This document shows, piece after piece, positions 35,299-64,000 of a DNA stretch of 64,000 nt. The notes beneath the pieces were generated by a model. It searched no databases, was not told where the DNA came from, and saw only the letters and a list, made by a program, of their open reading frames with translations. The position numbers and the translations under genes are program-made. The number at the start of each line of letters is the position of its first letter. Within the stretch, counting starts at the first letter, position 1. The DNA comes from Candidatus Fiminaster equi. Lineage in GTDB: Bacteria; Bacillota_I; Bacilli_A; RFN20; CAG-826. Location of the stretch: assembly GCA_018064745.1 (NCBI GenBank), contig JAGHUR010000011.1, forward strand, positions 6,137-70,136. Reading direction: 5' to 3'.

Positions 35299-35335
35299 TT
35301 GCCGAAAAATCGACATTATAAACATATTACAAAAT

Positions 35336-35363
35336 AAGGGAATTTATTATTCCCTTTTTATTT
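35336..35363 (+). terminator. dnaN intrinsic terminator
   Basis: aagggaat-(loop)-attccctt hairpin followed by a T-run. Confidence 0.8.
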
Positions 35364-35408
35364 TATATATGATAAAATGTATCGCGAGGACGAAATTTAA
35401 CCTTTTTT

Positions 35409-36706: not shown

Positions 36707-38703
36707 AACTAGATGAAAATGTCGAATTAAATGTAGACGCATCCACCGAAGATCGTCCAGATGCAGACTATTCTGCTAAAGATCTTCAAGTTCTCGAAGG
36801 CCTAGAGGCGGTTCGCAAACGTCCAGGTATGTACATTGGTACTACTGCAGCAGCAGGTCTTCACCACCTCGTTTGGGAAATTGTCGATAACTCTATCGAT
36901 GAGGCCCTTGCAGGATTCTGTGACAAAATTGTAGTCACAATCAACCCTGGCGACACCATCACAGTCGAAGATAATGGCCGTGGTGTTCCAGTCGACATCG
37001 TTGCAAAATCCGGATTATCCGGTGTCGAGACTGTCTTTACAATCTTACACGCCGGTGGTAAGTTCGGTGAAACTGGTGGATACAAAGTATCCGGCGGTTT
37101 ACACGGTGTTGGTGCATCAGTCGTTAACGCTTTGTCTGAATGGTTAGAATGTACTGTTCACAAAAATGGAAAAGTCCATTACATGAAATTTGGTCGTGGT
37201 GGTAAACCACTTGATCACTTAAAAGTAATTGGTGACTGCCCGGCTGAACAAACAGGTACAACTGTTACATTTAAACCAGATGACACAATCTTTACTGAAA
37301 CAACAGTTTATGATTACGATGTAATCTGTGATCACTTAAAACAAATGGCTTACCTTAACAAAGGTGTCAGAATTGTTGTAAGAGATGCACGTGTTGCCCC
37401 AGCTAAAGAAGAAACTTATTGCTACGAAGGTGGTATTAAGGAATACGTCCAATCAATTAACTTTAATAAAACCCCAATCATGCAAGAAATTATCTATTGC
37501 GAAGGTAGAGGAAAATACATGGTTGGTGATGAAGAAAAAGGTCATATCTATTGTGAGGTTGCTATGCAATATAACGAAAGCTATAACCCAACAATCTTCT
37601 CATTCTGTAACAACATTCACACACATGAAGGCGGAACCCACGAAGAAGGTTTCAGACTTGCAATGCGTCGTGTAATGAATGATTACGCAAGAAAAGCAAA
37701 ATTACTCAAGGATGATCAATCAGACCTTGAAACCTCGGATATTTTGGAAGGTTTAACCGCAATTATCTCAGTTAAACACCCAAACCCACAATATGAAGGA
37801 CAAACCAAGACAAAACTTGGTAACTCTGAAGTTCGTAAAATTGTTTCACAAATCGTTGGTGAACAACTTGAAAGATTCTTACTCGAGAATCCAAAAGTTG
37901 CCGAACAAATTGTCGCAAAACTTACAATGGCAGCAAAGGCTCGTATGGCTGCACGTGCTGCACAAGAATCTGTCCGTCGTAAAACAGGACTCGAAGTCAC
38001 AACTCTTCCAGGAAAATTAGCTGACTGCTCCAGCAAAGAACCAGAAAGATGTGAACTTTATATCGTCGAAGGTAACTCCGCTGGTGGCTCAGCCAAAAAC
38101 GGACGTGACCGTGAGACACAAGCAATTCTTCCACTTCGTGGAAAAATCTTAAATGTTGAAAAAGCAACTCAAGAAAAAGCTTTTGAAAACGCTGAAATTG
38201 GTAACATGATTGTCGCTATTGGTGCTGGCATTGACCCAGAATTCCATATCGAAAAAGCTCGTTATCACAAGATTGTTATTATGACCGATGCTGATGTTGA
38301 CGGAAGCCACATTAGAATTCTCTTATTAACATTCTTCTTCAGATTCATGAAGGAATTAATTGAAGCTGGTTATGTTTACATCGCACAACCACCTCTATAC
38401 AAAGTCGATTACCATGGTAAGTCATACTATGCTTACAACGATGATCAACTTGAAAACATCAAAAAACAACTCGCTTTAAAACCTGGATACCCATTCCAAC
38501 GTTATAAAGGTCTTGGTGAAATGGATGCAGAACAACTTTGGGAAACCACAATGGACCCAGCACACCGTAAAATGCTCCGTGTCACAATGTCTGATGCTAT
38601 CGAAGCCGACAAGGTCTTCACAGACTTAATGGGTGACGAAGTCTTACCAAGAAAAGAGTTCATTCACAAATATGCTAAGTTCGTTAAGAACTTAGATATC
38701 TAA
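36700..38703 (+). CDS. gyrB: DNA gyrase subunit B
   Basis: [20 protein letters not shown] ATPase, Toprim ([20 protein letters not shown]) and DADVDGSHI. Confidence 0.97.
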
Positions 38704-38721
38704 TGAAAGGAGAGTAAAATT

Positions 38722-44269: not shown

Positions 44270-44354
44270 ATCTTAATTTAGCATTATTATACTGATTTCT
44301 TAATAAAAGAAAAAATGTAATGATAAGAATTTTTGTATTTGCTATAATGTTTTA

Positions 44355-44436
44355 GCCATCGCAATGGTCTACTACGAACCAGGTCAGGGCAGGAATGCAG
44401 CAGCCTTAAGAAGATCAGATTATGTGCGATGGTTTT
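44355..44436 (+). ncRNA. ffs: small (4.5S-type) signal recognition particle RNA
   Basis: Closing stem gccatcgca...tgcgatggt. Domain IV core ACCAGGUCAGGGCAGGAAUGCAGCAGCC matches the universal CCAGGUCAGGUCCGGAAGGAAGCAGCC with a GGAA tetraloop. TATAAT at 44344-44349 and a T-run at the 3' end. Confidence 0.85.
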
Positions 44437-44441
44437 AAAAT

Positions 44442-44897
44442 ATGAAATCCATTGATGAAAAATTCATGTTACTTGCAATTAAAGAAGCAGAGAAATCTGC
44501 GTCTTTAGACGAAGTTCCAGTGGGTGCAATTATTGTAAAGGATAACAAAGTTATCGCTCGTGGTCATAACCTTAGAGAAAAGAGTAATGATCCAACAAGT
44601 CATGCTGAAATAAATGCAATTAGAAAAGCTTGCAAAAAGCTTGGCAGTTGGAGACTAGAAGATTGCACAATGTATGTCACTATTGAACCTTGTTCAATGT
44701 GTGCCGGAACTTTACTTTGGACAAGAATTAAAAGAATTGTCTATGGTGCATGCGATTTAAAAGGCGGTGCCTTGGGAAGTTCCTTTTCATTATTTGAAGT
44801 TAAGAATATAAATCATCATCCAGAGATAGTTGGAGGCATTCTTCAAGAAGAATGTGGAAAGATGATGAGCGACTTTTTCAAAGAAAAGCGTAAATAA
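44442..44897 (+). CDS. tadA: tRNA-specific adenosine deaminase
   Basis: CDA zinc motifs HAEINAI and PCSMCAG. 151 aa. Confidence 0.95.
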   Translation: MKSIDEKFMLLAIKEAEKSASLDEVPVGAIIVKDNKVIARGHNLREKSNDPTSHAEINAIRKACKKLGSWRLEDCTMYVTIEPCSMCAGTLLWTRIKRIVYGACDLKGGALGSSFSLFEVKNINHHPEIVGGILQEECGKMMSDFFKEKRK

Positions 44898-44963: not shown

Positions 44964-47438
44964 ATGTTTAAACACGTTCGCATTAAAAATAACAATATCG
45001 ATAGAGAAGACTTTCCACTTGATCTAGAAAACGGTTTAACAAGCACTCAAGTTTTAGAAAGACAACAAAATAATTTAATTAATAAAACCGGAAAACACGT
45101 TTCAAAATCTTATTTTAAGATTATTTACGAAAATGTAGTTAATTTCTGGAATCTTTTACTTTTTGCAATAGCTGCATTAATGATTATTGCCAAAATTAGC
45201 ATAACTTCATATGCATTCTTGGTAATTTTACTCGCAAATATTGCAATTGGCTTATATCAAGACATTCGTGCTAGAAAACTTCTTGATAAACTTAAAGTCG
45301 TATCTGCTCCAAAAGTTAGTGTACTAAGAGACGGAAAATTAGTATCAATTACTGCTGATCAAATCGTTTTATCAGATCTTGTTGAATTAAGACAGGGTAG
45401 CCAAATAGTATGTGATGGGTCGATTGTTAAGGGCTTTATTGAAGTAAACGAATCTTTATTAACAGGTGAGCCAGTAAATATTTTAAAGAATGTTGGTGAT
45501 TCAGTTTATTCTGGATCTTTTGCTACATCTGGTTGTGCATATTATCGTGTTGAGCAATTAGGCAAAGCTAACTATGCCGAAAAGCTTCAATCTAAAGCAA
45601 AAAAATTCAAAAAAGCTAAATCTGAAATCCTTATGTCTATCAAAGGTATATTTAAAGTTATTGGCTTCTTTGTCATTTTACTTGCTGTTGGATTAGGCCT
45701 TGTTTATGAAGGCAAATTACAATGGCCTGGATTTGAGAATATGAAAGATTCAGTTTTCCAATCCACAGTTGGTAGTATTTCGGGCTCTTTGGTCGCAATG
45801 ATCCCTATCGGTATGTATCTTCTTACCTCTATTACACTAGCAGTCGGTGCTATTCGTTTAGCAAAACAAAACACACTTACACAAGACATGTACTGTATTG
45901 AAATGCTAGCTAGAGCCGATATTTTATGCTTGGATAAAACAGGTACTTTAACTGATGGAAACTTGAACGTTCGTGAAATTATTCCTACTGGCGGAATATC
46001 GGAAAGAGACCTCGCAAAAATTGTTTATACCTTAGTCATGCAAACAGGTGATAAAAACGCAACGGCTAGGGCCATTATCGATAAATTCAGTAATTTAAAT
46101 CAATTTGATGCATACTCTGCAATACCATTTTCATCCGATAGAAAATTCTCTGCAGTTATGCTTGAGGATGGCCGTTCAATCGTAATGGGTGCACGTGAAT
46201 TCATTCCACACAACTGTCCAGAAGTGGATGAGAAGTGCAAATTATATGAAGCAGACGGATTGCGTGTTTTGTTAATAGTTCAACAAAGACACGTTGTTAA
46301 TATTAATGAACCATTAGAGGAGGGCGAGGTTTTAGGAATCCTTGTTCTTGAAGACCACATTAGAGATGATGCATATGATAATATCGAATGGTTCAAAAAC
46401 AATGATGTTGGTATCAGAATCATTACCGGAGATAACCCAGCATCAGCAGGCGAAGTTGCAAGAAGAGCTGGTATAGAGGGGTATGAAAAACAAATTTCTC
46501 TTGAAGGTATGCCACTTGAAGAAGTTAGACACATCGCAAGAGATTATGTGATTTTTGGACGTGTGTCTCCGGAACAAAAAGAAGTCATTATTGAAGCATT
46601 ACAAGATGATGGACACACAGTAGCTATGACCGGGGACGGTGTTAATGATATCCTTGCATTAAGGGTTGCAGACTGTTCTATTGCAATGGCTTCTGGTTCT
46701 GATGCTGCAAAGACTGTTTCTCACTTAGTTTCATTAGATTCAAATTTCTCATCATTGCCATCAGTTGTTAAAGAGGGTAGACGCGTTATTAATAACTTAC
46801 AACGTGCTATCTCTGTATTCTTGGTTAAGACTGTTTTCGCTATTGTATTAACTGGCGTGTTCTTAATTTGGGGTTTATCAGATAACAACATTACTTATCC
46901 ATTCGTTACAAATAACATGTACTTATGGGAAATTTTATTTATTGGTATTGGATCATTGTTCTTGTCACTGCAACCGAACGACGAAAGAATACAGTCCAAG
47001 TTCTTGCTTAACATCTTATTTAAAATTACCCCTGCATCGCTCATTCAGATATTTATTGTTCTTTTCTATTTCTTAGTAGGAAAACTCGCACTGGGTTGGG
47101 ATGTAGAGCTTGCCAAGACTCTTGCTGTCATATCATTCTCAGTATTTAGTTTTGTTATTTTAATTCGTGTTTGTATGCCATTTGATATTTACCGTATCTT
47201 TTTAACTGTGGGGCTCGGTTTCGTCGGTTTAATGGCTATACTGGCTGACTATTTCGCATTTAAAGAGAAATCAATCTTTGGTCTTTCGTATTCATTATTA
47301 AACGGAAGATATGTTGCAATATTATTTGTTGTTTTAGTTGTTTCAATTGCCGCATACGTCGGACTTGAAATTTTATTTGATCGTTTACATCAATTTATGG
47401 ATAGAAGAAAAGAGGAACAAAAATATGATCATTTCTAA
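44964..47438 (+). CDS. cation-translocating P-type ATPase (HAD-IC type, substrate unknown)
   Basis: TGEP, the phosphorylation site DKTGTLT, ITGDN and MTGDGVNDILAL. First ATG at 44964; the track's TTG start at 44919 is less likely. Confidence 0.9.
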   Translation: MFKHVRIKNNNIDREDFPLDLENGLTSTQVLERQQNNLINKTGKHVSKSYFKIIYENVVNFWNLLLFAIAALMIIAKISITSYAFLVILLANIAIGLYQDIRARKLLDKLKVVSAPKVSVLRDGKLVSITADQIVLSDLVELRQGSQIVCDGSIVKGFIEVNESLLTGEPVNILKNVGDSVYSGSFATSGCAYYRVEQLGKANYAEKLQSKAKKFKKAKSEILMSIKGIFKVIGFFVILLAVGLGLVYEGKLQWPGFENMKDSVFQSTVGSISGSLVAMIPIGMYLLTSITLAVGAIRLAKQNTLTQDMYCIEMLARADILCLDKTGTLTDGNLNVREIIPTGGISERDLAKIVYTLVMQTGDKNATARAIIDKFSNLNQFDAYSAIPFSSDRKFSAVMLEDGRSIVMGAREFIPHNCPEVDEKCKLYEADGLRVLLIVQQRHVVNINEPLEEGEVLGILVLEDHIRDDAYDNIEWFKNNDVGIRIITGDNPASAGEVARRAGIEGYEKQISLEGMPLEEVRHIARDYVIFGRVSPEQKEVIIEALQDDGHTVAMTGDGVNDILALRVADCSIAMASGSDAAKTVSHLVSLDSNFSSLPSVVKEGRRVINNLQRAISVFLVKTVFAIVLTGVFLIWGLSDNNITYPFVTNNMYLWEILFIGIGSLFLSLQPNDERIQSKFLLNILFKITPASLIQIFIVLFYFLVGKLALGWDVELAKTLAVISFSVFSFVILIRVCMPFDIYRIFLTVGLGFVGLMAILADYFAFKEKSIFGLSYSLLNGRYVAILFVVLVVSIAAYVGLEILFDRLHQFMDRRKEEQKYDHF

Positions 47439-48324
47439 GGAAGTACAAGAAGCTATTAAAAACCACAAACCTGTGGTAGCTCTAGAATCGACAATCATAT
47501 CACACGGTATGCCTTATCCTAAGAATGTTAAGACCGCATTAGAGGTTGAAGCAGTTATTAGAGAACATGGTGTTATACCTGCAACGATTGGCATCATTGA
47601 TGGTGAACCAGTCGTTGGTATGAGCCCAGAACAAATTGAAGAGTTTGGCAAAAGAGAAGGCATTACAAAAGTTTCTAGAAGAGACCTTCCGGTTGTTTTT
47701 GCAAAGAAACAATGGGGTGCCACAACAGTAGCTGCTACGATGATTATTGCAGCCCGTGCAGGTATTGAAATATTCGTAACGGGTGGGGTCGGAGGCGCTC
47801 ATAGAGGCGCTCAAGAGAACTTCGATATCTCTGCTGATCTTGAAGAATTAGGTAAAACAAATGTTACAGTTGTATCAGCTGGTGTTAAAGCAATTCTTGA
47901 TTTGCCACTTACTCTTGAAATCTTAGAAACAAAGGGCGTTCCTGTTTTAACTTATGGTACAGACGAATTCCCAGAGTTCTACACAAGAAGTTCTGGCATT
48001 AAAGTTGAGACTGTTGTCAATTCACCTCTTGAAGTTGCAAGTATCATTAAATGCAAACGTGATAACCAATTTGATGGTGGTGTGTTAGTTGCTAATCCAA
48101 TTCCAGAACAATACGCAATGGATAGAAAAGCAGTAGACTTTGCTATCAATAAAGCACTTAAGAGAGCTAAGAAAGATGGCATCACGGGTAAAAACATTAC
48201 CCCATATCTATTAAAAACAATTGTTGAGATTACAGGTGGTTTATCACTTGAAGCAAATATTCATCTTGTTAAAAATAATGCTGCGTTAGGAGCAGAGATT
48301 GCGAAAGAACTTTGTAACTTATGA
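47425..48324 (+). CDS. psuG: pseudouridine-5'-phosphate glycosidase
   Basis: ALESTIISHGMPYPKN and VTGGVGGAHRG. Start at MIISKE (ATG at 47425, AGAGGA SD) overlaps the ATPase 3' end by 14 nt. The track start at 47338 lies inside the ATPase gene. Confidence 0.9.
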   Translation: MIISKEVQEAIKNHKPVVALESTIISHGMPYPKNVKTALEVEAVIREHGVIPATIGIIDGEPVVGMSPEQIEEFGKREGITKVSRRDLPVVFAKKQWGATTVAATMIIAARAGIEIFVTGGVGGAHRGAQENFDISADLEELGKTNVTVVSAGVKAILDLPLTLEILETKGVPVLTYGTDEFPEFYTRSSGIKVETVVNSPLEVASIIKCKRDNQFDGGVLVANPIPEQYAMDRKAVDFAINKALKRAKKDGITGKNITPYLLKTIVEITGGLSLEANIHLVKNNAALGAEIAKELCNL

Positions 48325-48842
48325 AAATTGAGCAAGTATTCCAAGAAGGATTAAAGACTCTACTTAAAGAAAAACCTCTTGAAGATATTAATGTTATAGC
48401 ACTTTGTGAGCTCGTTCATTCGAACCGTCAGACGTTCTATTACCACTTTAGAGATATTTCGGATGTAGTAGATGCAACCTTTCTAAAAGCCAAAGTTGGC
48501 TATGGAAAGAAGTTTTTGGATTACGAATCAATTATTAAAGAAATGATTAGTTACATCACATCCAATATTCAGTATATCAATGCAATTAATAAATCATATG
48601 CATCTGATAAACTCTATTCATTTATGTTCTCGTATTTCTATACAAAGGTAGGCACGTTATTAAAGAATCACAATGTTGCTGGAGTTGAAATTACGCGATA
48701 CATATCGGTACTAAGTGCCAATGAGATTGAATTTTGGATCTCAAATAAAAGAAAAGAAAAAGCTGCATCGCTTATTAAAAGATTAACTACTATTTGGTTC
48801 TACTTAGTTAATCAATACCAATCTGATTTAAGCAGAAGATAG
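48321..48842 (+). CDS. TetR/DhaS-like transcriptional regulator (degenerate)
   Basis: N-terminal INVIALCELVHSNRQTFYYHFRDI resembles the TetR HTH (...FYYHF). ATGA overlap with psuG. Confidence 0.6.
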   Translation: MKIEQVFQEGLKTLLKEKPLEDINVIALCELVHSNRQTFYYHFRDISDVVDATFLKAKVGYGKKFLDYESIIKEMISYITSNIQYINAINKSYASDKLYSFMFSYFYTKVGTLLKNHNVAGVEITRYISVLSANEIEFWISNKRKEKAASLIKRLTTIWFYLVNQYQSDLSRR

Positions 48843-48850
48843 GAGTCGTT

Positions 48851-49987
48851 ATGAGAAAAGAAGAAGTTGCTAGTTTAATTGTTTATTTATTAATGATAGC
48901 CCTAGCCGTTATCGTTGGTTTATCAGTTGTCACAAATACAATGAGTGTTTGTAGACCAGATACAATAAATCCATTCTTATTTGTTATCATTGTTATCATT
49001 GTGGGTTTATTATTTAACATCATCATGCTTGAAGTCTTACATGCTATTGGCGGTAAACTTGGTGGATATAAGATTGCATCAATTAACATTCTTGGCTTCT
49101 GTTTTGAGAAAAGAGAAGGCAAGTGGAAATTCAAATTTAAAGACTTTGATGGACTAACGGGTGAAACTAAACTCGCTCCAAAGAAAGAAAAATTAAGTAT
49201 GAAACCATTTGTGTGGTTACCATTATTTGGTTATGCTGCAGAACTTGCTGGATGTATTGTTTTGCACTCACACATGATGAGTGATTCCGCAAGTAATGTG
49301 CGTTGGTTAGGTGTGTGCGCAATCTTATTTATTGTTTTATCATCAATGCTTGCTTTATATAATTTAGTTCCTATTAAATTAGACACAATGACTGATGGTT
49401 ATAAATTAGTTTTGATTTCTAAACCTGCAAATATTGAAGCATATAACGAAATGCTTAGAGCAGAAGATTTAGAAAGAAACGGACAACCAGTTCCAGAAAT
49501 GAAAATCTTTGAAGAGATTACAGAATTCACAGCAAGTATTAACTTATTTAGCGTATATCGACATTTAGAAAATAATGAATTAGATGAAGCAAAAAAAATC
49601 CTTGATATAACGCTCAAAGACCCTAAAAAACTCGAACCGTCTACATACTACCGTCTAATTTCTCAAAAACTTTACATCGTTATTTTGACCAAAGATAATG
49701 AAGATGCTAAAAAGGTATACGACGAGATTGCGGATGATAAAATTAGAAGATTTATTGCTAATGATGCATCTATGGAATCGATACGTGCATATCTATTAAT
49801 CTCGGGCATTCTAGAAAAGTCTCAAGCCGAAGTAAAATATGCAATAAATCGTAAAGGGAAGGCACTAAAACGCACAAACAAGCAAAAAGCAATGATTGAA
49901 GAGAAGCTTTATGATATTGCTCTTAATAAAGTGTATGAAGCCCATCCTAAATGGAAAGAAGAGGAAAAAGAAAACATCGCCGCATAA
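48851..49987 (+). CDS. membrane protein with a site-2-protease (M50)-like core carrying LExxH instead of HExxH, plus a helical-repeat C-terminal domain
   Basis: MLEVLHAIGGKLGGYK...ILGF aligns to the S2P HExxHxxxAxxxG...GFG segment, with the first His replaced by Leu. The second motif YNLVPIKLDTMTDG resembles NxxPxxxLDG. The C-terminal ~190 aa are alpha-helical and TPR-like. Confidence 0.45.
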   Translation: MRKEEVASLIVYLLMIALAVIVGLSVVTNTMSVCRPDTINPFLFVIIVIIVGLLFNIIMLEVLHAIGGKLGGYKIASINILGFCFEKREGKWKFKFKDFDGLTGETKLAPKKEKLSMKPFVWLPLFGYAAELAGCIVLHSHMMSDSASNVRWLGVCAILFIVLSSMLALYNLVPIKLDTMTDGYKLVLISKPANIEAYNEMLRAEDLERNGQPVPEMKIFEEITEFTASINLFSVYRHLENNELDEAKKILDITLKDPKKLEPSTYYRLISQKLYIVILTKDNEDAKKVYDEIADDKIRRFIANDASMESIRAYLLISGILEKSQAEVKYAINRKGKALKRTNKQKAMIEEKLYDIALNKVYEAHPKWKEEEKENIAA

Positions 49988-51948: not shown

Positions 51949-53124
51949 TTAAGCGCGTTTTTCCTTTTTGTAATTCTTTTTCACACGGTGTGCAAGTATC
52001 GTGTACACGATTGTAAATGGAATTAATGCTAAGTAAAGAATTGATGGAATGAATGAAGAAGTTGTAACATTCAATGTCAAACTACTTAGGACAGATTTGA
52101 ATTCTTCCATAGGAAGGACTCCTGCAATTTGTGGAAGGAATTTACTTGTTGCAATTGTTAATGTAATTCCTAATAAAAGTTGTATTGAAGCAAAAACGAA
52201 TACATACCAGGATTTGACCCAACATTTTTTACGTCTAATTATTCTAATGATAGAAACAATTGCAAGTACAGCCCATGGTGCAACAAATGCCATTAATGCG
52301 ATGAAATAATACAAGCTGTATTCTGAGAAGGAAGATGCAAACCCATCAAGAGTCTCATTTAATTTTCCTTGAAGTGTATCTCTTATCTTTTGTTTAAGGT
52401 TAACAATTTTACCGTCAGCATCACAGAATTCATTTTCAATGAATTTGTTTTTCATTTCAATTCTAACACTTTCGGTCATTTCATTGCCAATTTTTGTTGT
52501 ATCAGCGAACTCTTCAACGTGAGCTTGGTTTGCTAATCTACTTGCAACATCTTTCATTCTGTCTGTAACAACTTCATCCATAACCTTGTCGATAGTAGGA
52601 TCTTCTTCTGTAGCTTTTTTATAAACATCTTCTGCAAATGTACTGAAATATTCTTCGTTAAGTCCGGCATCGCTCATAGCTTTATCGCGATCTGTTGTAG
52701 GGCTTAATTCAACAATTTTATTTTCGACAGACTCTCTAATAATTTTCTTAGCAACATTAGTTGCTGTTTTGTGAACAACATCTTCTAAGATTGGTGTTAT
52801 GTCATTCATTACATTTGTTTTTGCCTCTTCGAGAGGTTCTGTAATGCTGTTTTTTAAACCCTCTTTATCTGTGAATTTTAAAACATATTTAGCTTCGACT
52901 GTTGCTTTAACCTTAATATCAACGGTTTTGTCTTTGACAATTTCATCAACTTCATCACCAGTAATATCTTTTCCGGCAGCATCTTTAACCATTGATGATA
53001 ATTGATCTGATTGGATTTTATATCCTCCATCAATATCGATATATGGTTTTGTAAAGAAGCAAGTAATTGCTACCGCTGCAATTACTAAATAGACGAGATT
53101 TAAAATCTTAATCACAACTTTCAT
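51949..53124 (-). CDS. hypothetical membrane protein (N-terminal TM, ~250-aa charged helical ectodomain, four C-terminal TM helices)
   Basis: The ORF is intact and hydrophobic segments are obvious. No recognisable family. Lies downstream of pmbA on the same strand. Confidence 0.55.
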   Translation of the reverse strand: MKVVIKILNLVYLVIAAVAITCFFTKPYIDIDGGYKIQSDQLSSMVKDAAGKDITGDEVDEIVKDKTVDIKVKATVEAKYVLKFTDKEGLKNSITEPLEEAKTNVMNDITPILEDVVHKTATNVAKKIIRESVENKIVELSPTTDRDKAMSDAGLNEEYFSTFAEDVYKKATEEDPTIDKVMDEVVTDRMKDVASRLANQAHVEEFADTTKIGNEMTESVRIEMKNKFIENEFCDADGKIVNLKQKIRDTLQGKLNETLDGFASSFSEYSLYYFIALMAFVAPWAVLAIVSIIRIIRRKKCWVKSWYVFVFASIQLLLGITLTIATSKFLPQIAGVLPMEEFKSVLSSLTLNVTTSSFIPSILYLALIPFTIVYTILAHRVKKNYKKEKRA

Positions 53125-56307: not shown

Positions 56308-56386
56308 AAATTTCTATATATTAATTATGTTTCGCTTTATTTTATAAAATAAGGGTTCTATAATATTTACATAGGAAGTGATAAAT

Positions 56387-57385
56387 ATGAGATTATTTAG
56401 AACAGTCAGTGTTATATCAACGGCAATTGTTTCATTTTGCTGTACGGCGTGTGGAGTTGATGAAAGTACATTGTATAAAATTGCAGTTACAAAAGCTCCA
56501 GATAAGATTAGTTATGTTGCCGGTGAAAAATTTGATCCTAAGGGAATGGAAGTAACTGGTTATTATGCTGAAGATAAAACAAAAGAGATTGAAGATTATA
56601 CATACACTCCAACAAAGGCTTTATCTACTTCTAACAAAACAGTGACAATTACTTACAAAGGTTTTAAATGTACAACTAAAATTAGTGTAAGCATTGCACC
56701 AAAACCAGACCCAGAAGGATATTACAAAGAATGTGAAGGTCTTCAAGGATCCCAATTAGAAGACAAACTTAAAGAGATTAATACACCACGTTCTCCAAGC
56801 TATGATTGGAAGAGATATGAAGCTGCAGATGAATCTGCAACTGATCCAAGTTGCATATTATCTTTGTATACAAGACACGACATTCCTAAAAATAATCACT
56901 GCGGTAACTATGCCTGGAATTATTGGAATAGAGAACACATATGGACACAAACCGCTTATCCAAATTCAAAACAAGATAATCACAATATCTTTGCTTGTGA
57001 AGGCCAAATAAATGCATATAGAGGTGATTTACCATTTGGTGAAGTATCTCATACCTCTGGAAATACAAAGAAAATTTTTGGTCACGATGTAGATTGTTAT
57101 TGGACAAGTAGTCGTTTTGAACCATGCGATGACGCCAAAGGCGAAGTTGCTAGAGCAGTTATGTATGGAACAGTTCAATATTCATATGACATTACTGATA
57201 TGATTTCAATCGACCTTGCTCTTAAATGGCACCTTGAACATCCTATCACTACTAGAGATCAAAATAGAAATAGTGTTGTTTATACACTTCAAGGAAACAG
57301 AAACCCATTTGTTGATCACCCTGAATATGCTTGTAAGATTTGGGGAACAACAAACTCTGCCACAAAGAAAATTTGTGGAATGTAA
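56387..57385 (+). CDS. surface lipoprotein nuclease: Ig-like domain + endonuclease I (EndA/Bsn) family domain
   Basis: Signal peptide plus Cys cluster (IVSFCCTAC). Has a ~70-aa Ig-like module (YKIAVTKAPDKISYVAGEKFDPKGMEVTGYY...VTITYKG). Endonuclease I motifs are NREHIWTQ, N.YRGDLPFG and NRNPFVDHPEYA. The ATG at 56387 (AGGAAG SD) is preferred over the track's GTG at 56378. Confidence 0.8.
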   Translation: MRLFRTVSVISTAIVSFCCTACGVDESTLYKIAVTKAPDKISYVAGEKFDPKGMEVTGYYAEDKTKEIEDYTYTPTKALSTSNKTVTITYKGFKCTTKISVSIAPKPDPEGYYKECEGLQGSQLEDKLKEINTPRSPSYDWKRYEAADESATDPSCILSLYTRHDIPKNNHCGNYAWNYWNREHIWTQTAYPNSKQDNHNIFACEGQINAYRGDLPFGEVSHTSGNTKKIFGHDVDCYWTSSRFEPCDDAKGEVARAVMYGTVQYSYDITDMISIDLALKWHLEHPITTRDQNRNSVVYTLQGNRNPFVDHPEYACKIWGTTNSATKKICGM

Positions 57386-57413: not shown

Positions 57414-58991
57414 ATGAAAAACAAGTTCTACATTACTACGCCAATTTATTACCCAAGCGCGGAAGCGCACATAGGACACGCTTATTGCACAACCATGTGT
57501 GATATTTTAGCGCGTTCAAAACGAATGCGTGGTTTTGAAACTTATTTTTTAACTGGTACTGATGAACATGGCGAAAAGATCCAAAAGAAAGCTGCTGAAA
57601 AAGGCGTTACTCCTCAACAATATGTTGATGAAATTGCAGCTAAGTTCCAAGATTTATGGAAAGCCATGAGAATTTCAAATGATGATTTTATTAGAACGAC
57701 TCAAGAAAGACACACTAAAGTAGTTCAAAACATCTTTTCTACATTGTATAAAAACGAAGATATTTACCTTGGTAAATACGAAGGTTGGTATTGCACCCCT
57801 TGTGAATCTTTTTGGACTGATACTCAAGTTGGTGAAGAACGCCTTTGTCCAGATTGCCATAGAGAAGTTCATAAAGCTTCTGAAGAATGTTATTTCTTCA
57901 AGACAAATAAATATCTTGATGAACTATTAAAATATTATGATGAAAACCCAAAATTCATTACACCAATCAATCGTAAGAATGAAATGATGAATACATTCAT
58001 TAAGAACGGCCTTGATGATTTATGTGTTTCTAGAACAACTTTTGATTGGGGTGTTCCAGTTTTAGAAAACCCAAAACACGTTATGTATGTTTGGTTAGAC
58101 GCACTTTGTAATTATATTACAGCTTTAGGATATGGCTCTGAAAATACAGATAAGTTTGAAAAATTCTGGAATGATCCAAATACCGAAATTGTGCACGTTG
58201 TAGGCGCAGACATTACACGTTTCCACGTTATCTATTGGCCAATGTTTTTAAAAGGACTTAATCTTAGATTACCAGACAGAGTTTTCGTCCATGGTCTTTT
58301 AGATCTAAACGGCGAGAAGATGTCAAAGAGTCGCGGAAACGTTGTTTCGCCTCTTCCACTAATTGAAAGATATGGCGTTGATACAGTTCGTTGGTTCTTG
58401 GCAAAAGAATTCTCATTTGGTAGTGACGGAAGATTTACTCCAGAGTTATTTGCCGACCGCGTAAATGTAGATCTCGCTAACAATTTTGGCAACCTCGTTA
58501 ACCGTACCACTTCAATGATTTCAAAATACTTCGATGGTATTGTGCCAGAACTTAAAAATCCTGGAGAAAATGAGCGAAATATTGAGGTTTTGACGGAGAA
58601 AACAGTTAAAGCTTATGAGAATTTGATGGATGATTTGAAGGTTACTGAAGCCCTTCATGAAGTCATCAATTTGCTCAATGTTGCAAACAAATATATTGAA
58701 GAATCTCAACCTTGGGTTTTATCAAAAGAAGGCAAGATTGAAGAACTCGGAAATGTTATGGCAGTTTTAACAAATTGTATTATTGTTGGAACTAAACTTT
58801 TGTCCCCAGTATTAGTTGAATCTGCTCCAAAAGTTTTCGCATTATTTAATTTAACTGAAAAACAACAATCTTATGAATCAGTTCATGACTTTTGCTGCTT
58901 TGCAGGAAATCATGTTGATAAAGGAACACCATTGTTCCCACGTTTAGATGTTGCAGTGGAGACCGAATTTATTAATTCGTTGACAAAATAA
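57414..58991 (+). CDS. metG: methionyl-tRNA synthetase (short form without the C-terminal tRNA-binding domain)
   Basis: HIGHAY (HIGH), a Zn knuckle CPDCH, and KMSKSRGN (KMSKS). Confidence 0.95.
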   Translation: MKNKFYITTPIYYPSAEAHIGHAYCTTMCDILARSKRMRGFETYFLTGTDEHGEKIQKKAAEKGVTPQQYVDEIAAKFQDLWKAMRISNDDFIRTTQERHTKVVQNIFSTLYKNEDIYLGKYEGWYCTPCESFWTDTQVGEERLCPDCHREVHKASEECYFFKTNKYLDELLKYYDENPKFITPINRKNEMMNTFIKNGLDDLCVSRTTFDWGVPVLENPKHVMYVWLDALCNYITALGYGSENTDKFEKFWNDPNTEIVHVVGADITRFHVIYWPMFLKGLNLRLPDRVFVHGLLDLNGEKMSKSRGNVVSPLPLIERYGVDTVRWFLAKEFSFGSDGRFTPELFADRVNVDLANNFGNLVNRTTSMISKYFDGIVPELKNPGENERNIEVLTEKTVKAYENLMDDLKVTEALHEVINLLNVANKYIEESQPWVLSKEGKIEELGNVMAVLTNCIIVGTKLLSPVLVESAPKVFALFNLTEKQQSYESVHDFCCFAGNHVDKGTPLFPRLDVAVETEFINSLTK

Positions 58992-58992: not shown

Positions 58993-61620
58993 ATGGGCAA
59001 GTACGATCAAAACAAAACACCATATTTAGATGCTCTTAAAAAGTATCTTTCTGATGACGTTCTTCAATTAGATGTTCCAGGACACGAAAGAGGAACATTA
59101 CCAAGTAAGTTTAGAAACTTTATTGGAGACTCTGTCTATAACGCTGACGTAAACGCGCCTATTGGAATGGACAATTTAGCCAATCCACAAGGAGTTCTTT
59201 TAGAAGCAGAAAAATATTTTGCTGATTTTGCTAATGCAGACAAGTCATTTTTCCTAGTTAACGGAACCTCTAGTGGCATTCTCGCTATGATTATGGTCGC
59301 GTGCAGTGCTAACGAGAAAATTATTCTCCCACGCAACGTGCACAAATCAATTATTTCTGCTCTTATTCTTTCTGGTGCTTCACCAATTTTTATTGCACCA
59401 AAAATTGATGCAGATTTAGAAATTGCTAATCAACCAACAGTTGATGATTATATTAATGCTATGCATAAATATCCTTCAGTGAAAGCAATTTTTGTTATTA
59501 ACCCAACTTATTTTGGCGCAGTTAATGACTTAAAACATTTAGTTGAAGAAGCTCACGCTAGAGGAATTGCGGTTTTGGTCGATGAAGCACACGGTGCTCA
59601 TTACTATTTTGATAAACAAGGACCAATTTCAGCCATGGATGCTGGAGCTGATATGTCTTCAGTTTCTTTCCACAAGACTGGTGGAAGTTTAACTCAATCA
59701 TCTGTTTTACTCCTCAAATCTAAACTTATTGATAGAGCTAGAGTTCAAAAAACTCTTAACATTTTAAACACAACTTCCCCATCCACAATTCTTATGGCAT
59801 CAATTGATTCCGCAAGATCATTTGCAGCCACAAAAGGCCAAGAATATATGGAAAAACTCCATGAAGTTTCTAAATATGGTCGTGAACAGATTGCAAAAAT
59901 TAATGGATTTGTTCCTTGTGGAAAAGAACATTTTAAAACTCGTGGTTGCTATGATTATGATGAAACAAAACTTGTTATCAAGCTTGAACATTTAGACATT
60001 AATGGTTTTGATGTTTATCAACTGCTCAAGAAAAAATACAACATTCAAATTGAGTTAGCAGAAACATATGTCATTATGGGCGTTTTATCAATGGCATTTA
60101 CAAAACAAAAAATGAATCGTTTAATTGCTGCACTCAAAGACATTTCAAAAAATCATTACAATAAAAAATACAATTATGAACGTCACGCCTTTGGCGTTGA
60201 TTTCCCATTCCAAGTCGTTAGACCAAGAAGTGCTTTCCATGCACCAGGAAATAAAGTTTTACTTAAAGATGCAGTTAACTGCATCTCTAGAGAATCAATT
60301 ATGATTTATCCTCCAGGAATTCCTTTAATTGTTCCGGGAGAAGTTTTCACAAAAGATTTAGTCGATAGAATTTATGCCTATAAGAAAACGGGCTGCACAA
60401 TCCTTTCAGATTACCATGGAGATTACGTTAACGTAATCGATACGACAAAGTGGAGAGCTTATAGAGCTCATAAAAATAAACTTAATGACTATTTGGTCAA
60501 GAGAATTTCTACACCTCGTGCAGATGAGTTTTCTATGCCTTTTGAAGGCAATAAACACAGTGGAACTATTGTTCTTTTACCATTTAGAAAAGATACTTGG
60601 AGAAAAAATGCTGAACCAGCACTTGAAAACTACAAACAAGTTATTACCAGTATTGCAAAATATGAACCTGTTTATGTTGGAATATCTCCAAAATTATGGA
60701 ATCGCGTAATCAAAGATTACGAAGGACTTAAAAATATTTATCCAATCAAGATTGCTTATAACGATGCTTGGGCACGTGACAATTCTCCAATTTTTGTTAC
60801 AAATGGTGACAGAATGAGAATCGTTGACTTTAGATTTAATGCTTGGGGCGGTGAAGTTGATGGATTGTACTCAAACTACAAACAAGATGATGCCTTAACT
60901 AAGAATTTAGCAAAGAAATTTGGTGTCGAATGTTATAGATTAGAAGACTTCATTCTTGAAGGTGGATCAATTCATGTTGATGGGGAGGGAACTTGTCTTG
61001 TAACAAAAGCTTGCCTTCTTTCAGAAGGAAGAAATCCACACCTTAATCAATTAGAAATTGAAGAAACACTCAAGATTTATCTTGGTGTATCTAAAATTAT
61101 TTGGTTAGAACACGGAATTTATGAAGATGAGACTAATGAGCACGTCGATAATGTCGCTTGTTTCATCAAACCTGGTGTTGTTGCACTCGCGTGGACAAAT
61201 GATAAAAATGATCCTCAATATAAATTCTCAAACGATGCTTATAAAGTCCTCAAAAATTCAACTGATGCAAAAGGCAGAAAGTTAGAAATTGTTAAAATTA
61301 AGGTTCCATCACCTATTTATATGTCAAAGAAAGAATCAAAAGGTATTTCTATAGGAAAATATAATGCAAAATCACGTGTTGAAGGAAATAGACTTGCTGC
61401 AAGTTATATTAACTTCTATCAAGGAGAAAAATTTGTCATTCTTCCTGCATTTGGAGTTCCTGAAGATAAGCTTGCTAAGAAAACATTACAAGCTCTTTAT
61501 CCAGAAAAAGAAATTATTCAATTTAACACAAAAGAAATCTTGTTAGGTGGTGGAAACGTTCACTGTATAACAATGCAAATCCCATACAATAAGGAGTTTA
61601 AAAAACGAAATGAAAATTAA
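58993..61620 (+). CDS. bifunctional fusion: SpeA-type PLP-dependent arginine decarboxylase (N, ~aa 1-485) + agmatine deiminase (C, ~aa 505-875)
   Basis: The N-terminal half is collinear with B. subtilis SpeA-type Orn/Lys/Arg decarboxylases (VPGHERG, NGTSSGILAM, PRNVHKS, DEAHGAH, SFHKTGGSLTQSS, YPPGIP). The C-terminal half has agmatine deiminase motifs (TPRADEFSMP, WARDNSPIF, EGGSIHVDGEGT, catalytic GGGNVHCITMQ). It is a single uninterrupted frame. Confidence 0.85.
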   Translation: MGKYDQNKTPYLDALKKYLSDDVLQLDVPGHERGTLPSKFRNFIGDSVYNADVNAPIGMDNLANPQGVLLEAEKYFADFANADKSFFLVNGTSSGILAMIMVACSANEKIILPRNVHKSIISALILSGASPIFIAPKIDADLEIANQPTVDDYINAMHKYPSVKAIFVINPTYFGAVNDLKHLVEEAHARGIAVLVDEAHGAHYYFDKQGPISAMDAGADMSSVSFHKTGGSLTQSSVLLLKSKLIDRARVQKTLNILNTTSPSTILMASIDSARSFAATKGQEYMEKLHEVSKYGREQIAKINGFVPCGKEHFKTRGCYDYDETKLVIKLEHLDINGFDVYQLLKKKYNIQIELAETYVIMGVLSMAFTKQKMNRLIAALKDISKNHYNKKYNYERHAFGVDFPFQVVRPRSAFHAPGNKVLLKDAVNCISRESIMIYPPGIPLIVPGEVFTKDLVDRIYAYKKTGCTILSDYHGDYVNVIDTTKWRAYRAHKNKLNDYLVKRISTPRADEFSMPFEGNKHSGTIVLLPFRKDTWRKNAEPALENYKQVITSIAKYEPVYVGISPKLWNRVIKDYEGLKNIYPIKIAYNDAWARDNSPIFVTNGDRMRIVDFRFNAWGGEVDGLYSNYKQDDALTKNLAKKFGVECYRLEDFILEGGSIHVDGEGTCLVTKACLLSEGRNPHLNQLEIEETLKIYLGVSKIIWLEHGIYEDETNEHVDNVACFIKPGVVALAWTNDKNDPQYKFSNDAYKVLKNSTDAKGRKLEIVKIKVPSPIYMSKKESKGISIGKYNAKSRVEGNRLAASYINFYQGEKFVILPAFGVPEDKLAKKTLQALYPEKEIIQFNTKEILLGGGNVHCITMQIPYNKEFKKRNEN

Positions 61621-62479
61621 GGTCGCAATTACTCAAATGAGCTGCTCCTCAAACTACGAGGAAAACATTAAAAAAGCCGAGAAAATGGTGGAAAATTGTG
61701 CAAAAGCAGGTGCAAATATCATTCTTTTGCAGGAACTTTTTTCTAATCTATATTTCTGCCAAGTCGAAGATTATGACAAGTTTGAATTAGCTGAAAATAG
61801 AAGCAAATCAAACTTAATTGAGCACTTTAAAAAAGTTGCAAAAAAATACAATGTAGTTCTTCCAATTTCATTCTTTGAAAAATCAGGAGCAAATTACTTT
61901 AATTCGTTAGTAATGATTGATGCTGATGGTAAAGATTTAGGGATGTATCGTAAAACACACATTCCAACTGGCGAATGTTACGAAGAAAAATTCTATTTCT
62001 CACCAGGAGATACAGGATTTAAAGTTTTCAAAACAAAATTTGGTCGTGTTGGTGTTGGAATTTGTTGGGATCAATGGTTCCCAGAAACTGCAAGAATTTT
62101 AGCATTAAAAGATGCAGAAATTTTACTTTATCCAACAGCAATTGGTTCTGAACCAGTTTTAGTGCGTGATTCCATGCCACACTGGCGCAATACAATGTGC
62201 GGTCATGCAGCTGCAAATATTATTCCTGTCTGTGCTTCCAACAGAGTTGGACTTGAAACAGCAGGAAAATCATCAATGACATTCCAAGGTTTCTCATTTA
62301 TAGCAGACCAATATGGAAATGTTGTTGAAGAAATGGACAGAAAAGAAGAAGGGTTCAGAGTACATGAATTTGACCTTCAATCAATAGATAAAGAAAGAGT
62401 TTCTTGGGGTGTGTTCAGAGATCGTAGACCAGAATGCTACAAGGAATTAATTGGTTATTCAAAAAACTTAGATGAATAA
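61610..62479 (+). CDS. aguB: N-carbamoylputrescine amidase (nitrilase superfamily)
   Basis: LQELF (Glu), YRKTHIP (Lys) and ICWDQWFPE (Cys) form the catalytic triad context. Overlaps the fusion gene by 11 nt. Confidence 0.9.
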   Translation: MKIKVAITQMSCSSNYEENIKKAEKMVENCAKAGANIILLQELFSNLYFCQVEDYDKFELAENRSKSNLIEHFKKVAKKYNVVLPISFFEKSGANYFNSLVMIDADGKDLGMYRKTHIPTGECYEEKFYFSPGDTGFKVFKTKFGRVGVGICWDQWFPETARILALKDAEILLYPTAIGSEPVLVRDSMPHWRNTMCGHAAANIIPVCASNRVGLETAGKSSMTFQGFSFIADQYGNVVEEMDRKEEGFRVHEFDLQSIDKERVSWGVFRDRRPECYKELIGYSKNLDE

Positions 62480-63389
62480 GAACGATAAAAAGAGAGAAAT
62501 CCACAAAGGTAAAGTTAACCCAAATTCGATTAAAGAATTCAAGGTTAAAGAAGAGTGCGAACTCCTCTCTTTTTTGTTTGAAAAATTTCCAAACTTATCC
62601 AGAAATGCAGTTAAATCAATTCTCTCAGGACACTATGTTGGAGTGAATGGAGCACCGGTTTCTCAATACAATTTAAAGCTCTCAAAAGATGACGTCGTAA
62701 TTGTCTCAAAACAGCGAATTTCCCGCAAAAATCGCCGTGATTTACCGATTATTTATGAAAATGATGAGTTTATTGTTATAGATAAACCAAGCGGATTGTT
62801 AACTGTTCCGAGCGATAATGAAAAGGGCAGAACAGCCTATCGTATGGTTAATGATTATGTGCAACAAAAAGATAAGCACAATAGAGTATTTGTGGTTCAC
62901 CGTTTAGACGAAGACACGTCTGGTGTTTTGATGTTTGCTAAGAACGCAAAAATTAAAGATATTTTACAAAAAGAATGGGGCGAAATTGTTCTTGAAAGAG
63001 GATACTATGCTGTTGTTGAAGGGAACATGGAAAAACCAGAGGACACTTTTGTTGATTATTTAAAAGAAAATGCCCTCAATTTAATGTATGTTTCAAACGA
63101 CAGAAAAAATGGCAAAAGATGTGTAACACAATACAAAGTATTGAAATCAAATAAACTTTATTCGCTTTTAGATGTAAAAATTGATACAGGAAGAAAGAAC
63201 CAAATTCGTGTACAATTAGGTCATAGAGGACACCACGTAATCGGAGACGACAAATATGGTGAACCAGCCGATCCAATTAAACGTCTTGGACTTCATGCAT
63301 ACAAATTAAAATTTGTTCATCCTGTAACAAAGAAAATTTTTGTTTTTGAGTCTAAAATGCCAGCTCAATTTGAGAATTTGTTCCATTAA
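62472..63389 (+). CDS. RluA-family pseudouridine synthase with an N-terminal S4-like domain
   Basis: HRLDEDTSGVLMFAK catalytic Asp motif and TGRKNQIRVQL. Overlaps aguB by 8 nt. Confidence 0.9.
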   Translation: MNKNDKKREIHKGKVNPNSIKEFKVKEECELLSFLFEKFPNLSRNAVKSILSGHYVGVNGAPVSQYNLKLSKDDVVIVSKQRISRKNRRDLPIIYENDEFIVIDKPSGLLTVPSDNEKGRTAYRMVNDYVQQKDKHNRVFVVHRLDEDTSGVLMFAKNAKIKDILQKEWGEIVLERGYYAVVEGNMEKPEDTFVDYLKENALNLMYVSNDRKNGKRCVTQYKVLKSNKLYSLLDVKIDTGRKNQIRVQLGHRGHHVIGDDKYGEPADPIKRLGLHAYKLKFVHPVTKKIFVFESKMPAQFENLFH

Positions 63390-63409: not shown

Positions 63410-63440
63410 AAAAGGGCGCTCGTTATTGCGAGTGCTTTTT
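63410..63440 (+). terminator. intrinsic terminator of the metG-to-rluA-like operon
   Basis: gcgctcg-(6 nt)-cgagtgc stem followed by TTTTT. Confidence 0.8.
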
Positions 63441-63463: not shown

Positions 63464-64000
63464 ATGAGACAGGCACTGTTAAAACTAAAAGATTCACTTC
63501 TCTCAACTTTACCAGTATTGGTGGTTGTTTTAGTTTTATATTTTGCAAAAGTTGCAAATTTTGAATCAAATCAACTTTGGGTTTTTGGCATCAGTGTTGT
63601 TTTTGTAATCATTGGTATGTGGTTATTTAACATGGGTTCAGAAACATCCATGTCTAGAATGGGTGAACTCATTGGTTCATCAATCACCAAAAAAAGAAGT
63701 ATGGCAATGCTTGTCATTATTTTCTTCTTGTTTGGTGCATTTATTACAATGGCTGAACCAGACCTATCAGTGCTTGCTGACCAAGTTCCTATCGATAGTA
63801 CAGTTTTAACTGTGAGTATCGGTGTTGGCGTTGGCATTTTCTTAGTTATTGGTGCCATTAGAATTCTTTTACAAAAACCTTTAACCTTATGGTTATTAGC
63901 GTTCTATGGTTTAATGTTTGCATTATGTTGTTTAGTTGATTACGCATATGTTCCACTTTCTTTAGATAGTGGTGGCGTAACAACTGGACCAATTACCGTT
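63464..64000 (+). CDS. DUF1538-family membrane protein, N-terminal 179 codons (runs off the window end)
   Basis: Own translation from the ATG at 63464 gives MRQALLKLKDSL...ITMAEPDLSVLADQV...LDSGGVTTGPITV. The AEPD..VLA and DSGGVTTGP blocks are the DUF1538 hallmarks. Open-ended, so absent from the ORF track. Confidence 0.8.
   Translation, partial: MRQALLKLKDSLLSTLPVLVVVLVLYFAKVANFESNQLWVFGISVVFVIIGMWLFNMGSETSMSRMGELIGSSITKKRSMAMLVIIFFLFGAFITMAEPDLSVLADQVPIDSTVLTVSIGVGVGIFLVIGAIRILLQKPLTLWLLAFYGLMFALCCLVDYAYVPLSLDSGGVTTGPITV

Follow-up and report, generated by a model that had tools for sequence, protein, structure and literature searches.

A SpeA-type decarboxylase joined to agmatine deiminase in one polypeptide of uncultured Bacilli

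Can two consecutive enzymes on the route from arginine to putrescine be carried by one polypeptide, and if so, what might the joined protein do? The question is raised by a locus in a 64,000-nucleotide stretch of DNA from Candidatus Fiminaster equi (GenBank assembly GCA_018064745.1, contig JAGHUR010000011.1, positions 6,137 to 70,136 of the forward strand), the whole of which we call the window. An original prediction, made from the sequence without database searches, described a SpeA-type decarboxylase and a complete agmatine deiminase (AguA, or AIH) within a single open reading frame (ORF), followed by an overlapping gene for N-carbamoylputrescine amidase (aguB). Our analysis upholds this core reading and describes a real, conserved fusion of two known consecutive enzymes. 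While both enzymes and their pathway are textbook knowledge, their covalent joining is new and apparently undescribed, as the original prediction had supposed: no description of a fusion of arginine decarboxylase (ADC) with AIH was found in full-text literature searches, the nearest account (PMC8503589) having only a Fusobacterium fusion of an ancestral-form ornithine decarboxylase (aODC) with an arginase-like domain. Taken together, the evidence from the sequence makes a bifunctional ADC/AIH the likely reading of this protein.

One open frame carrying two enzymes

In the ORF listing of the window, the fusion is a single ATG-initiated frame. Its parts, together with the gene that overlaps its end, are as follows (window coordinates; residue numbers are those of the fusion protein).

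58993..61620, plus strand: fusion ORF of 875 residues, an ancestral-form decarboxylase of the aspartate aminotransferase fold (putative ADC) plus agmatine deiminase; from domains, full-length homologs and an AlphaFold2 (AF2) model
59017..60105, plus strand: major domain of the decarboxylase, binding pyridoxal phosphate (PLP), residues 9-371; Pfam PF01276, 229.3 bits
60106..60456, plus strand: C-terminal domain of the decarboxylase, residues 372-488, with YPPGIP and the native 'VIDxxxW' tail (D483, W487); PF03711
60442..60510, plus strand: connector, residues 484-506, with predicted helices at 488-492 and 494-503; from alignment and AF2 model
60511..61587, plus strand: agmatine deiminase (AguA/AIH) domain, residues 507-865; TIGR03380
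61588..61620, plus strand: non-catalytic C-terminal tail, residues 866-875 and stop; read from the sequence
61610..62479, plus strand: aguB, N-carbamoylputrescine amidase (CN-hydrolase); TIGR03381, 425.3 bits against a cutoff of 410.25, and PF00795, 178.6 bits

Pfam recognises OKR_DC_1 (residues 9-371), OKR_DC_1_C (371-455) and PAD_porph (515-864, 360 bits) on the same protein, with both decarboxylase domains above their gathering cutoffs (229.3 bits against 27 for PF01276 and 32.1 against 24.2 for PF03711), and the NCBIfam aguA model TIGR03380 scores 445.6 bits against an equivalog cutoff of 381.8. The decarboxylase half carries SFHKTGGSLTQSS at residues 225-237, including the PLP lysine K228 (codon at 59674-59676), D197 and H200 inside a DEAHGAH motif, and YPPGIP at residues 439-444. 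In the AIH half lie TPRADEFSMP (507-516), WARDNSPIF (593-601) and GGGNVHCITMQ (852-862), the last containing the catalytic Cys858 (codon at 61564-61566), with H717, D719, D596 and E656 as further key residues. The domain and equivalog scores of the fusion and of aguB are far beyond chance, and all the motifs quoted in the original prediction were recovered, both for the fold-I PLP decarboxylase with its YPPGIP domain and for the complete deiminase.

The decarboxylase half lacks the N-terminal receiver (REC) 'wing', its OKR_DC_1 match beginning at residue 9; NCBIfam models of extended-form decarboxylases align only from model position ~100-135 and score far below their cutoffs. It aligns with the solved structure 2x3l and with LdcC/LdcI, the SFHK PLP-lysine motif being in register. 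The AIH half matches Arabidopsis AIH (1vkp/3h7c) with a phmmer E-value of 9e-96, is 41-44% identical to plant and E. faecalis agmatine deiminases, and aligns with the Arabidopsis enzyme at the catalytic Cys and at the E-H-x-D and W-x-R-D motifs. Its AF2 model superposes on 1vkp, 3h7c, 6nic and 2jer with target-normalised TM scores of 0.94-0.96 (Foldseek) and root-mean-square deviations of 1.3-1.5 Å, and the plant structures matched include an entry with a covalent reaction intermediate. No solved chain spanning both halves was found in the Foldseek comparison with solved structures.

A long ORF of this kind could be an artefact, in which an assembly or sequencing error erased a stop or frameshift between speA and aguA or a chimeric contig brought the two together, and the original prediction had named a stop or frameshift in relatives as the finding that would undo it. 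None was found. We searched 5.8 billion proteins clustered at 90% identity, obtaining at least 120 clusters of ~875 aa that are 71-97% identical to the window protein, and repeating the search from the most divergent genome copy added at least 120 more clusters of ~870 aa; both domain sets are present in all, so that at least 240 clusters carry the fusion uninterrupted. In a scan of one genome per GTDB species, the best 80 loci (at least 80 species), which underlie all locus counts below, each match residues 1 to ~870 in a single unbroken alignment at 52-91% identity. Fusion ORFs from the species-level genomes gave the alignment of 81 sequences used for all residue counts, and every one of these is a single open frame (866-885 aa). 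The closest relatives of the window protein are P0001 (97% identical, at locus L001) and the copy at locus L004 (91%, 'Bacilli bacterium', SGB_3889). This recurrence across many studies and assemblers, together with a junction of identical length in 81/81 sequences, only synonymous changes at the junction relative to L001 (eight, with no non-synonymous change) and uniform GC content across the fusion region, leaves an artefact with next to no probability; the comparative data exclude it.

The architecture is species-rich and heavily sampled but confined to one family-level clade of proteins, since among 1.84 billion representatives at 50% identity, scanned exhaustively with HMMER, there were just two full-length fusions (P0121 and P0122) and one more fragment spanning the junction. 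Among the matches listed, all carriers are uncultured metagenome-assembled genomes (MAGs) of Bacilli type, the order RFN20 included, titled 'Bacilli bacterium', 'Erysipelotrichaceae bacterium', 'Bacillales bacterium', 'uncultured Mollicutes', Candidatus Enteromonas sp. or Candidatus Alloenteromonas pullistercoris, and their habitats, where stated, are mostly rumen, horse faeces and human gut. Candidatus Enteromonas belongs to GTDB order RFN20, family CAG-826, and has a genome of ~1.2 Mb (PMC8035907). The fusion also lies on long contigs of bins titled Escherichia coli, Faecalibacterium prausnitzii, Alistipes communis, Bacteroidaceae, Lachnospiraceae, Prevotella and others (GenBank CAV… records 'H07xxx-L1_cleanbin', loci L011, L016, L018, L021, L066, L067 and L071-L077). 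We judge these unrelated names to reflect mislabelled bins and not spread to other phyla.

Though common in MAG databases, with hundreds of metagenomic lineages represented, the architecture is only half-annotated: NCBI/GenBank records call it 'agmatine deiminase', apparently on the ground that no equivalog but aguA reaches its cutoff, and JGI records 'arginine decarboxylase' or 'lysine decarboxylase'. None of the fusion cluster members listed has a UniRef source, which several unfused relatives do have. Half-annotation means that pathway reconstructions of these abundant uncultured gut and rumen Bacilli miss step one or miscount the pathway, and correct annotation alters predictions of which gut organisms produce putrescine.

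The junction and the descent of the fusion

Both halves appear to have been kept functional. The residues K228, S225, H227, D197, H200 and H117 of the decarboxylase half and W593, D596, E656, H717, D719 and C858 of the AIH half are invariant in 81/81 sequences. Between the window and L001 (88% nucleotide identity), there are 253 synonymous and 30 non-synonymous codon differences; the latter make up a fraction of 0.12 of all differing codons in the decarboxylase half and of 0.10 in the AIH half, and the eight differences in the connector are all synonymous. These patterns point to purifying selection on both halves ever since they were joined. Divergent fusion members likewise pass the aguA cutoff (P0121 at 404.6 bits, L081 at 421.5 bits).

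The halves have also travelled together. Mean pairwise identity is 0.62 in each, with a correlation of r = 0.89 between them (3240 pairs from the 81 sequences), and neighbour-joining trees, which are distance-based and include the nearest unfused representatives but no characterised reference enzymes, recover the fused forms of the decarboxylase domain as monophyletic in 100/100 bootstraps and those of the AIH domain in 94/100. Since both halves are monophyletic and co-diverge, our data indicate one ancient fusion event followed by vertical co-divergence: a speA-type gene would have been joined once to aguA, in the common ancestor of uncultured Bacilli, mostly from gut and rumen, whose clade includes RFN20. 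An origin by horizontal transfer or on a mobile element was considered and rejected in view of the uniform GC content, the housekeeping neighbourhood near oriC and the co-diverging halves.

One full-length relative shows a different fate of the AIH half. P0122 (863 aa, L088:9727-12318, ENA ERZ27245259; a singleton cluster) has an intact decarboxylase half and a degenerate AIH half, in which MKSNLSE stands in place of GGGNIHC, NASES in place of WARDN and YKLSD in place of EHVDN, and its aguA score is 45.8 bits against the cutoff of 381.8. The contig extends 237 nt further downstream, and no aguB-like ORF is present there. The AIH half of P0122 is possibly a pseudoenzyme domain, an echo of the inactive arginase-like domain in the Fusobacterium fusion.

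The original prediction placed a basic linker of about 20 residues between the halves. The sequence itself, TTKWRAYRAHKNKLNDYLVKR (residues 484-504, nt 60442-60504), was found in that place, but the notion of a flexible basic tether does not hold, given that the region is fixed in length and predicted to be helical. Residues 480-510 number exactly 31 in 81/81 sequences. Within the connector, W487 is invariant and Y493 (95%), D499 (91%) and Y500 (94%) are nearly so across the 81 sequences, while the remaining positions vary. At residue 493 (nt 60469-60471) the window protein has His, as does the 97%-identical P0001, and 77/81 species have Tyr. AF2 and DSSP assign the connector helices 488-492 and 494-503 at a predicted local distance difference test score (pLDDT) of 82-92.

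When the tails of unfused decarboxylases are aligned by anchoring on YPPGIP, these proteins are seen to terminate ~50 aa past the start of that motif, which corresponds to window residue ~488, and P0125 and P0126, two of the closest unfused decarboxylases, already have 'VIDxxxW' in their tails. Stand-alone AIHs begin at the equivalent of window residue ~501-505. Because one native end falls at ~488 and the other native start at ~501-505, the junction is a near end-to-end join of native termini with roughly ten new residues at most. We also considered an internal translation start that would yield a separate AIH and rejected it: M515 is the conserved Met/Leu of the AIH motif 'xMPxE', with no Shine-Dalgarno sequence upstream.

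The AF2 model of the whole fusion, built on an alignment of 133 fusion sequences, has a mean pLDDT of 90.9 and a predicted TM score (pTM) of 0.82. The high pTM suggests a fixed orientation between the domains, though it derives from a model of the monomer, and the two catalytic domains are probably kept in a set position relative to each other by the helical connector, whose length does not vary.

Substrate and role of the fused decarboxylase

We propose that the ORF encodes a bifunctional cytoplasmic enzyme. Its N-terminal half (residues 1 to ~488), a fold-I PLP decarboxylase of the B. subtilis SpeA type ('ancestral form', wingless), would convert L-arginine to agmatine; its C-terminal half (residues ~501-865) would convert agmatine to N-carbamoylputrescine and NH3 by means of Cys858, H717, D719 and D596; and the product of the translationally coupled aguB would turn N-carbamoylputrescine into putrescine, CO2 and NH3, such that two overlapping genes would encode the whole path from arginine to putrescine. 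As the original prediction had it, aguB overlaps the fusion ORF, by exactly 11 nt, contains ICWDQWFPE and passes the TIGR03381 cutoff. It lies directly 3' of the fusion in 80/80 loci. The second and third steps are well supported because of the equivalog scores, the catalytic residues and the fold; the first step, in which the decarboxylase half would most probably act on arginine, calls for more argument.

We infer arginine as the substrate because the link to an intact AIH and to aguB has long been kept and because unfused relatives stand beside genes of agmatine or polyamine metabolism: P0125 adjoins an agmatinase gene, and P0133 sits in a speD-decarboxylase-speE-speB operon. Two further grounds are that, among the ancestral-form enzymes of Bacilli assayed by Li et al. 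(2021), only ADC activity was found (PMC8503589), and that an independent fusion of an AIH with a SpeA-like decarboxylase of the alanine-racemase (AR) fold, P0174, follows the same logic.

Several observations weigh against so direct a reading. The aODC of C. botulinum prefers ornithine 313-fold even though the genome encodes AIH along with NCPAH, the amidohydrolase of N-carbamoylputrescine, and the L. ferrooxidans enzyme encoded beside speD/speE is a lysine decarboxylase (LDC) (PMC8503589). B. subtilis SpeA is ~48% identical to characterised aODCs (PMC8503589), so the 40-44% identities of our decarboxylase half do not discriminate among the classes, and substrate specificity in the ancestral-form family is unreadable from sequence or context. 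In the Fusobacteriaceae fusion the decarboxylase half is an ornithine decarboxylase (ODC) and the partner domain is probably inactive (PMC8503589); together with the degenerate AIH half of P0122, this indicates that fusion partners can decay.

On these grounds the decarboxylase half could be an ornithine, lysine or broad-specificity enzyme, with AIH and AguB using agmatine from the gut and the fused protein serving parallel routes to diamines. Besides the C. botulinum case, the T. thermosaccharolyticum enzyme is a bifunctional ornithine/lysine decarboxylase (O/LDC) (PMC8503589), the Fusobacterium fusion pairs an ODC with an arginase/agmatinase-like domain, some fusion members are labelled 'lysine decarboxylase' by JGI pipelines, and identity to characterised classes is uninformative. 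Yet a 1:1 covalent fusion with the AIH site intact in 81/81 sequences and aguB alongside in 80/80 loci is harder to explain if the halves are unconnected, and the agmatinase linkage of close unfused relatives, the AR-fold fusion and the assays on Bacilli enzymes all run the other way; we therefore hold this alternative to be quite improbable. In passing, P0130 was considered as the characterised Thermoanaerobacterium O/LDC and set aside as a different protein (485 aa against 495 aa for WP_013298087).

Less probable by far is that the decarboxylase half is a YaaO-type paralog, concerned with 5-aminopentanol modification of elongation factor P, or some other non-polyamine member of the family, with the fusion serving an unrelated function. 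Many SpeA homologs are indeed not ADC, ODC or LDC, and the only solved ancestral-form structure matched, 2x3l, comes from S. aureus, whose sole family homolog is a putative YaaO encoded upstream of tmk (PMC8503589). However, YaaO genes lie directly upstream of tmk while SpeA genes lie with polyamine genes (PMC8503589), and ours stands between metG and aguB; at locus L002, a distance of over 9 kb separates the fusion gene from tmk, which lies on the opposite strand. The match to 2x3l (132 bits) is far weaker than those to P0125 (450 bits) and P0133 (386 bits), themselves in speB and speDEB contexts, and the fusion to AIH together with aguB points to agmatine metabolism.

Granted that the chemistry runs from arginine to putrescine, its purpose may differ from polyamine biosynthesis. 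The conversion consumes a proton and releases two NH3 and two CO2, and agmatine deiminase (AgDI) systems in lactic acid bacteria are catabolic, in keeping with a catabolic or protective role (acid tolerance or nitrogen harvesting in small-genome bacteria of gut and rumen, with putrescine excreted). Homologs of speD, speE and agmatinase were absent from the 64-kb window and from the 1.21 Mb flanking the 80 loci, the rest of the genomes not having been searched, and this want of a linked onward route to spermidine fits such a role, as do the stated habitats, mostly gut, rumen or faeces. Against it, the partner is the hydrolytic CN-hydrolase AguB and not putrescine carbamoyltransferase with carbamate kinase, so no ATP would be gained; linked genes include neither an agmatine/putrescine nor an arginine/agmatine antiporter; the gene stands within a housekeeping operon near oriC; and spermidine genes could lie elsewhere in these genomes. 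We regard the catabolic or protective role as rather unlikely.

What might such a bifunctional enzyme gain from its fusion? We infer that the fused protein is catalytically active and that joining the halves would bring a benefit, namely strict 1:1 co-expression and immediate local removal of agmatine. Strong product inhibition has been reported for ancestral-form decarboxylases (PMC8503589), and removal of agmatine would counter it. Relief of product inhibition is as good a rationale as the possible channelling of agmatine that the original prediction suggested, and may be an alternative or a complement to it. A bolder form of the proposal would have an obligate two-step enzyme of fixed geometry, in which the conserved helical connector keeps the AIH and decarboxylase active sites near each other within a defined oligomer, agmatine is handed over by proximity or channelling before it can equilibrate with the cytoplasm, product inhibition is abolished, and the cassette is the signature, possibly the only, putrescine route of the clade of RFN20 and relatives; we put this forward as a tentative and somewhat doubtful extension. 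If it is true, RFN20 and its relatives, an order-level clade of Bacilli in gut and rumen, would supply luminal putrescine as self-contained contributors. The fusion also offers a natural system in which to ask whether joining a product-inhibited decarboxylase to a product-consuming enzyme gives a kinetic advantage or channelling, and the 'Rosetta-stone' link may aid the prediction of ADC specificity in a family that notoriously defies such prediction.

Gene neighbourhood and comparable systems

The fusion and aguB belong to a larger unit in the window, whose other members are the following.

57414..58991, plus strand: metG, methionine--tRNA ligase; NCBIfam NF008900, 733.7 bits against a cutoff of 598
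62472..63389, plus strand: RluA-family pseudouridine synthase; TIGR00005, 189.4 bits (cutoff 192.7), and Pfam PseudoU_synth_2
63411..63440, plus strand: intrinsic-terminator-like hairpin with a 13-bp stem and T-run; terminator scan

The TAA stop of metG is followed by a single nucleotide and then the fusion ATG, with no Shine-Dalgarno sequence at the fusion start; rluA, which shares 8 nt with the end of aguB, comes last, and the strong terminator-like hairpin closes the metG-fusion-aguB-rluA unit. The original prediction found this context unusual for polyamine genes. Both flanking genes are indeed present here, but they are restricted to a close subclade: metG adjoins the fusion in the closest relatives alone, stands 2-3 kb upstream in the remaining members of the subclade at ≥67% identity and is absent from other loci, while rluA adjacency occurs only within the ≥66% subclade. 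Since only the aguB linkage holds in all 80 loci, the metG/rluA context is lineage-specific gene packing and the conserved functional unit is the fusion with aguB. The RluA-family gene is probably functionally unrelated to the fusion.

The coupling to aguB also bears on the end of the fusion protein. The aguB Shine-Dalgarno sequence AAGGAG (61591-61596) and ATG (61610) both lie within the C-terminal tail of the fusion, whose codons (…K-E-F-K-K-R-N-E-N, then stop) thus hold the signals for the next gene. The tail is unconserved across the wider clade (majority fraction 0.10) and kept only in the subclade with the 11-nt overlap, for which reason translation initiation of aguB, and not protein function, seems to determine its sequence.

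The window also includes the replication origin region (yidC/jag, dnaA, dnaN, recF, gyrB and gyrA) and otherwise housekeeping genes. The origin region spans 29634-41283 (intergenic ~31716-32699), with jag/R3H and yidC on the minus strand and dnaA (32700) through gyrA on the plus strand; ~26 kb separate dnaA from the fusion, and the two point in the same direction. Downstream of rluA, a gene for a DUF1538 membrane protein (~63465-64000, plus strand) runs off the window end. The corresponding stretches are L001:5433-6968 and L002:14433-16743, and in L002 the DUF1538 gene is followed by a small ORF and a P-II family gene. Close relatives share this DUF1538/P-II pair downstream of the cassette. 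Upstream of metG, the ORF at 56378-57385 (plus strand) begins with a hydrophobic N-terminus rich in Cys (…SFCCTACG…), which a bacterial Ig-like (Big_3) domain and then an Endonuclease I domain follow; its product is probably a nuclease that is secreted or lipid-anchored. In L002, too, metG has an Endonuclease_1 gene upstream. The sole Rfam match at gathering threshold in the window is the bacterial small signal recognition particle RNA (RF00169, 66.8 bits, 44348-44444, plus strand), directly upstream of tadA. Three consecutive ORFs downstream of a P-type ATPase (47338-49987, plus strand; 328, 173 and 378 aa) and a 391-aa ORF (51949-53124, minus strand) had no NCBIfam match at E ≤ 1e-20.

How does this cassette compare with known systems? 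Its decarboxylase half agrees with ancestral-form ADC of the B. subtilis SpeA type (PMC8503589) in comprising OKR_DC_1 and OKR_DC_1_C without a REC 'wing' over ~488 residues, and in its PLP lysine within S-x-H-K, its DEAHGAH and its YPPGIP. The characterised enzymes are stand-alone proteins of ~480-490 aa, whereas ours is the N-terminal half of an 875-aa protein with arginine as its probable substrate. Similarly, the AIH half shares with AguA/AIH (TIGR03380; 1vkp, 3h7c, 2jer, 6nib) the catalytic Cys, His and Asp, the fold and an aguB that follows, but stand-alone AIHs have a free N-terminus and here it is covalently joined to the decarboxylase. In the AgDI systems of lactic acid bacteria, aguA clusters with genes for putrescine carbamoyltransferase, carbamate kinase and an agmatine/putrescine antiporter. 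None of these three was present among the listed neighbours in L001 and L002 or the annotated ORFs of the window, and their absence, together with the hydrolytic nature of AguB, argues against an ATP-yielding system of the AgDI kind.

Some other multidomain proteins with one or other of these domains were also seen: a methyltransferase of NNMT/PNMT/TEMT type joined to OKR_DC_1 (P0147, 734 aa), a 5-formyltetrahydrofolate cyclo-ligase joined to AIH (P0156, 556 aa), decarboxylases extended at the N-terminus by 130-215 aa without a Pfam match (P0145, 693 aa; P0151, 607 aa) and a 2469-aa protein with a decarboxylase domain (P0218).

Among fusions of polyamine enzymes, the closest in architecture is the 783-aa fusion of an aODC with an arginase/agmatinase-like domain in Fusobacteriaceae (WP_005898385), whose decarboxylase was found by experiment to be an ODC (PMC8503589); P0138 (782 aa), which shows an Arginase domain, is a homolog of it. 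The Fusobacteriaceae partner has the arginase fold (PF00491) and is thought inactive, whereas the window partner is an AIH of the PAD_porph fold with its active-site residues intact. That fusion is restricted to Fusobacteriaceae, and the window protein is an architectural analogue only and not a member; because the fused decarboxylase domains form a clade of their own, the window type arose independently. Joining of consecutive polyamine enzymes has precedent in the AdoMetDC-aminopropyltransferase fusions, which have several independent origins (Green et al. 2011, as cited in PMC6356823), though other enzymes and another step, from diamine to triamine, are involved there.

A further comparison is P0174 (1051 aa; L089:1793-4948 and L090:1893-5048), a metagenomic protein known as a single cluster from two contigs of different samples, beside genes for an F420-ligase-family protein and a GNAT acetyltransferase. 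As in the window fusion, the decarboxylase is N-terminal and the AIH C-terminal, and the AIH half passes the aguA cutoff. It differs in that its decarboxylase (Orn_Arg_deC_N and Orn_DAP_Arg_deC) is of the non-homologous AR fold, its AIH falls outside the clade of the window fusions and no aguB is adjacent. P0174 is an independent fusion, convergent with that of the window, and with the decayed-AIH relative P0122 it provides built-in comparisons for asking what the joining of these two enzymes achieves.

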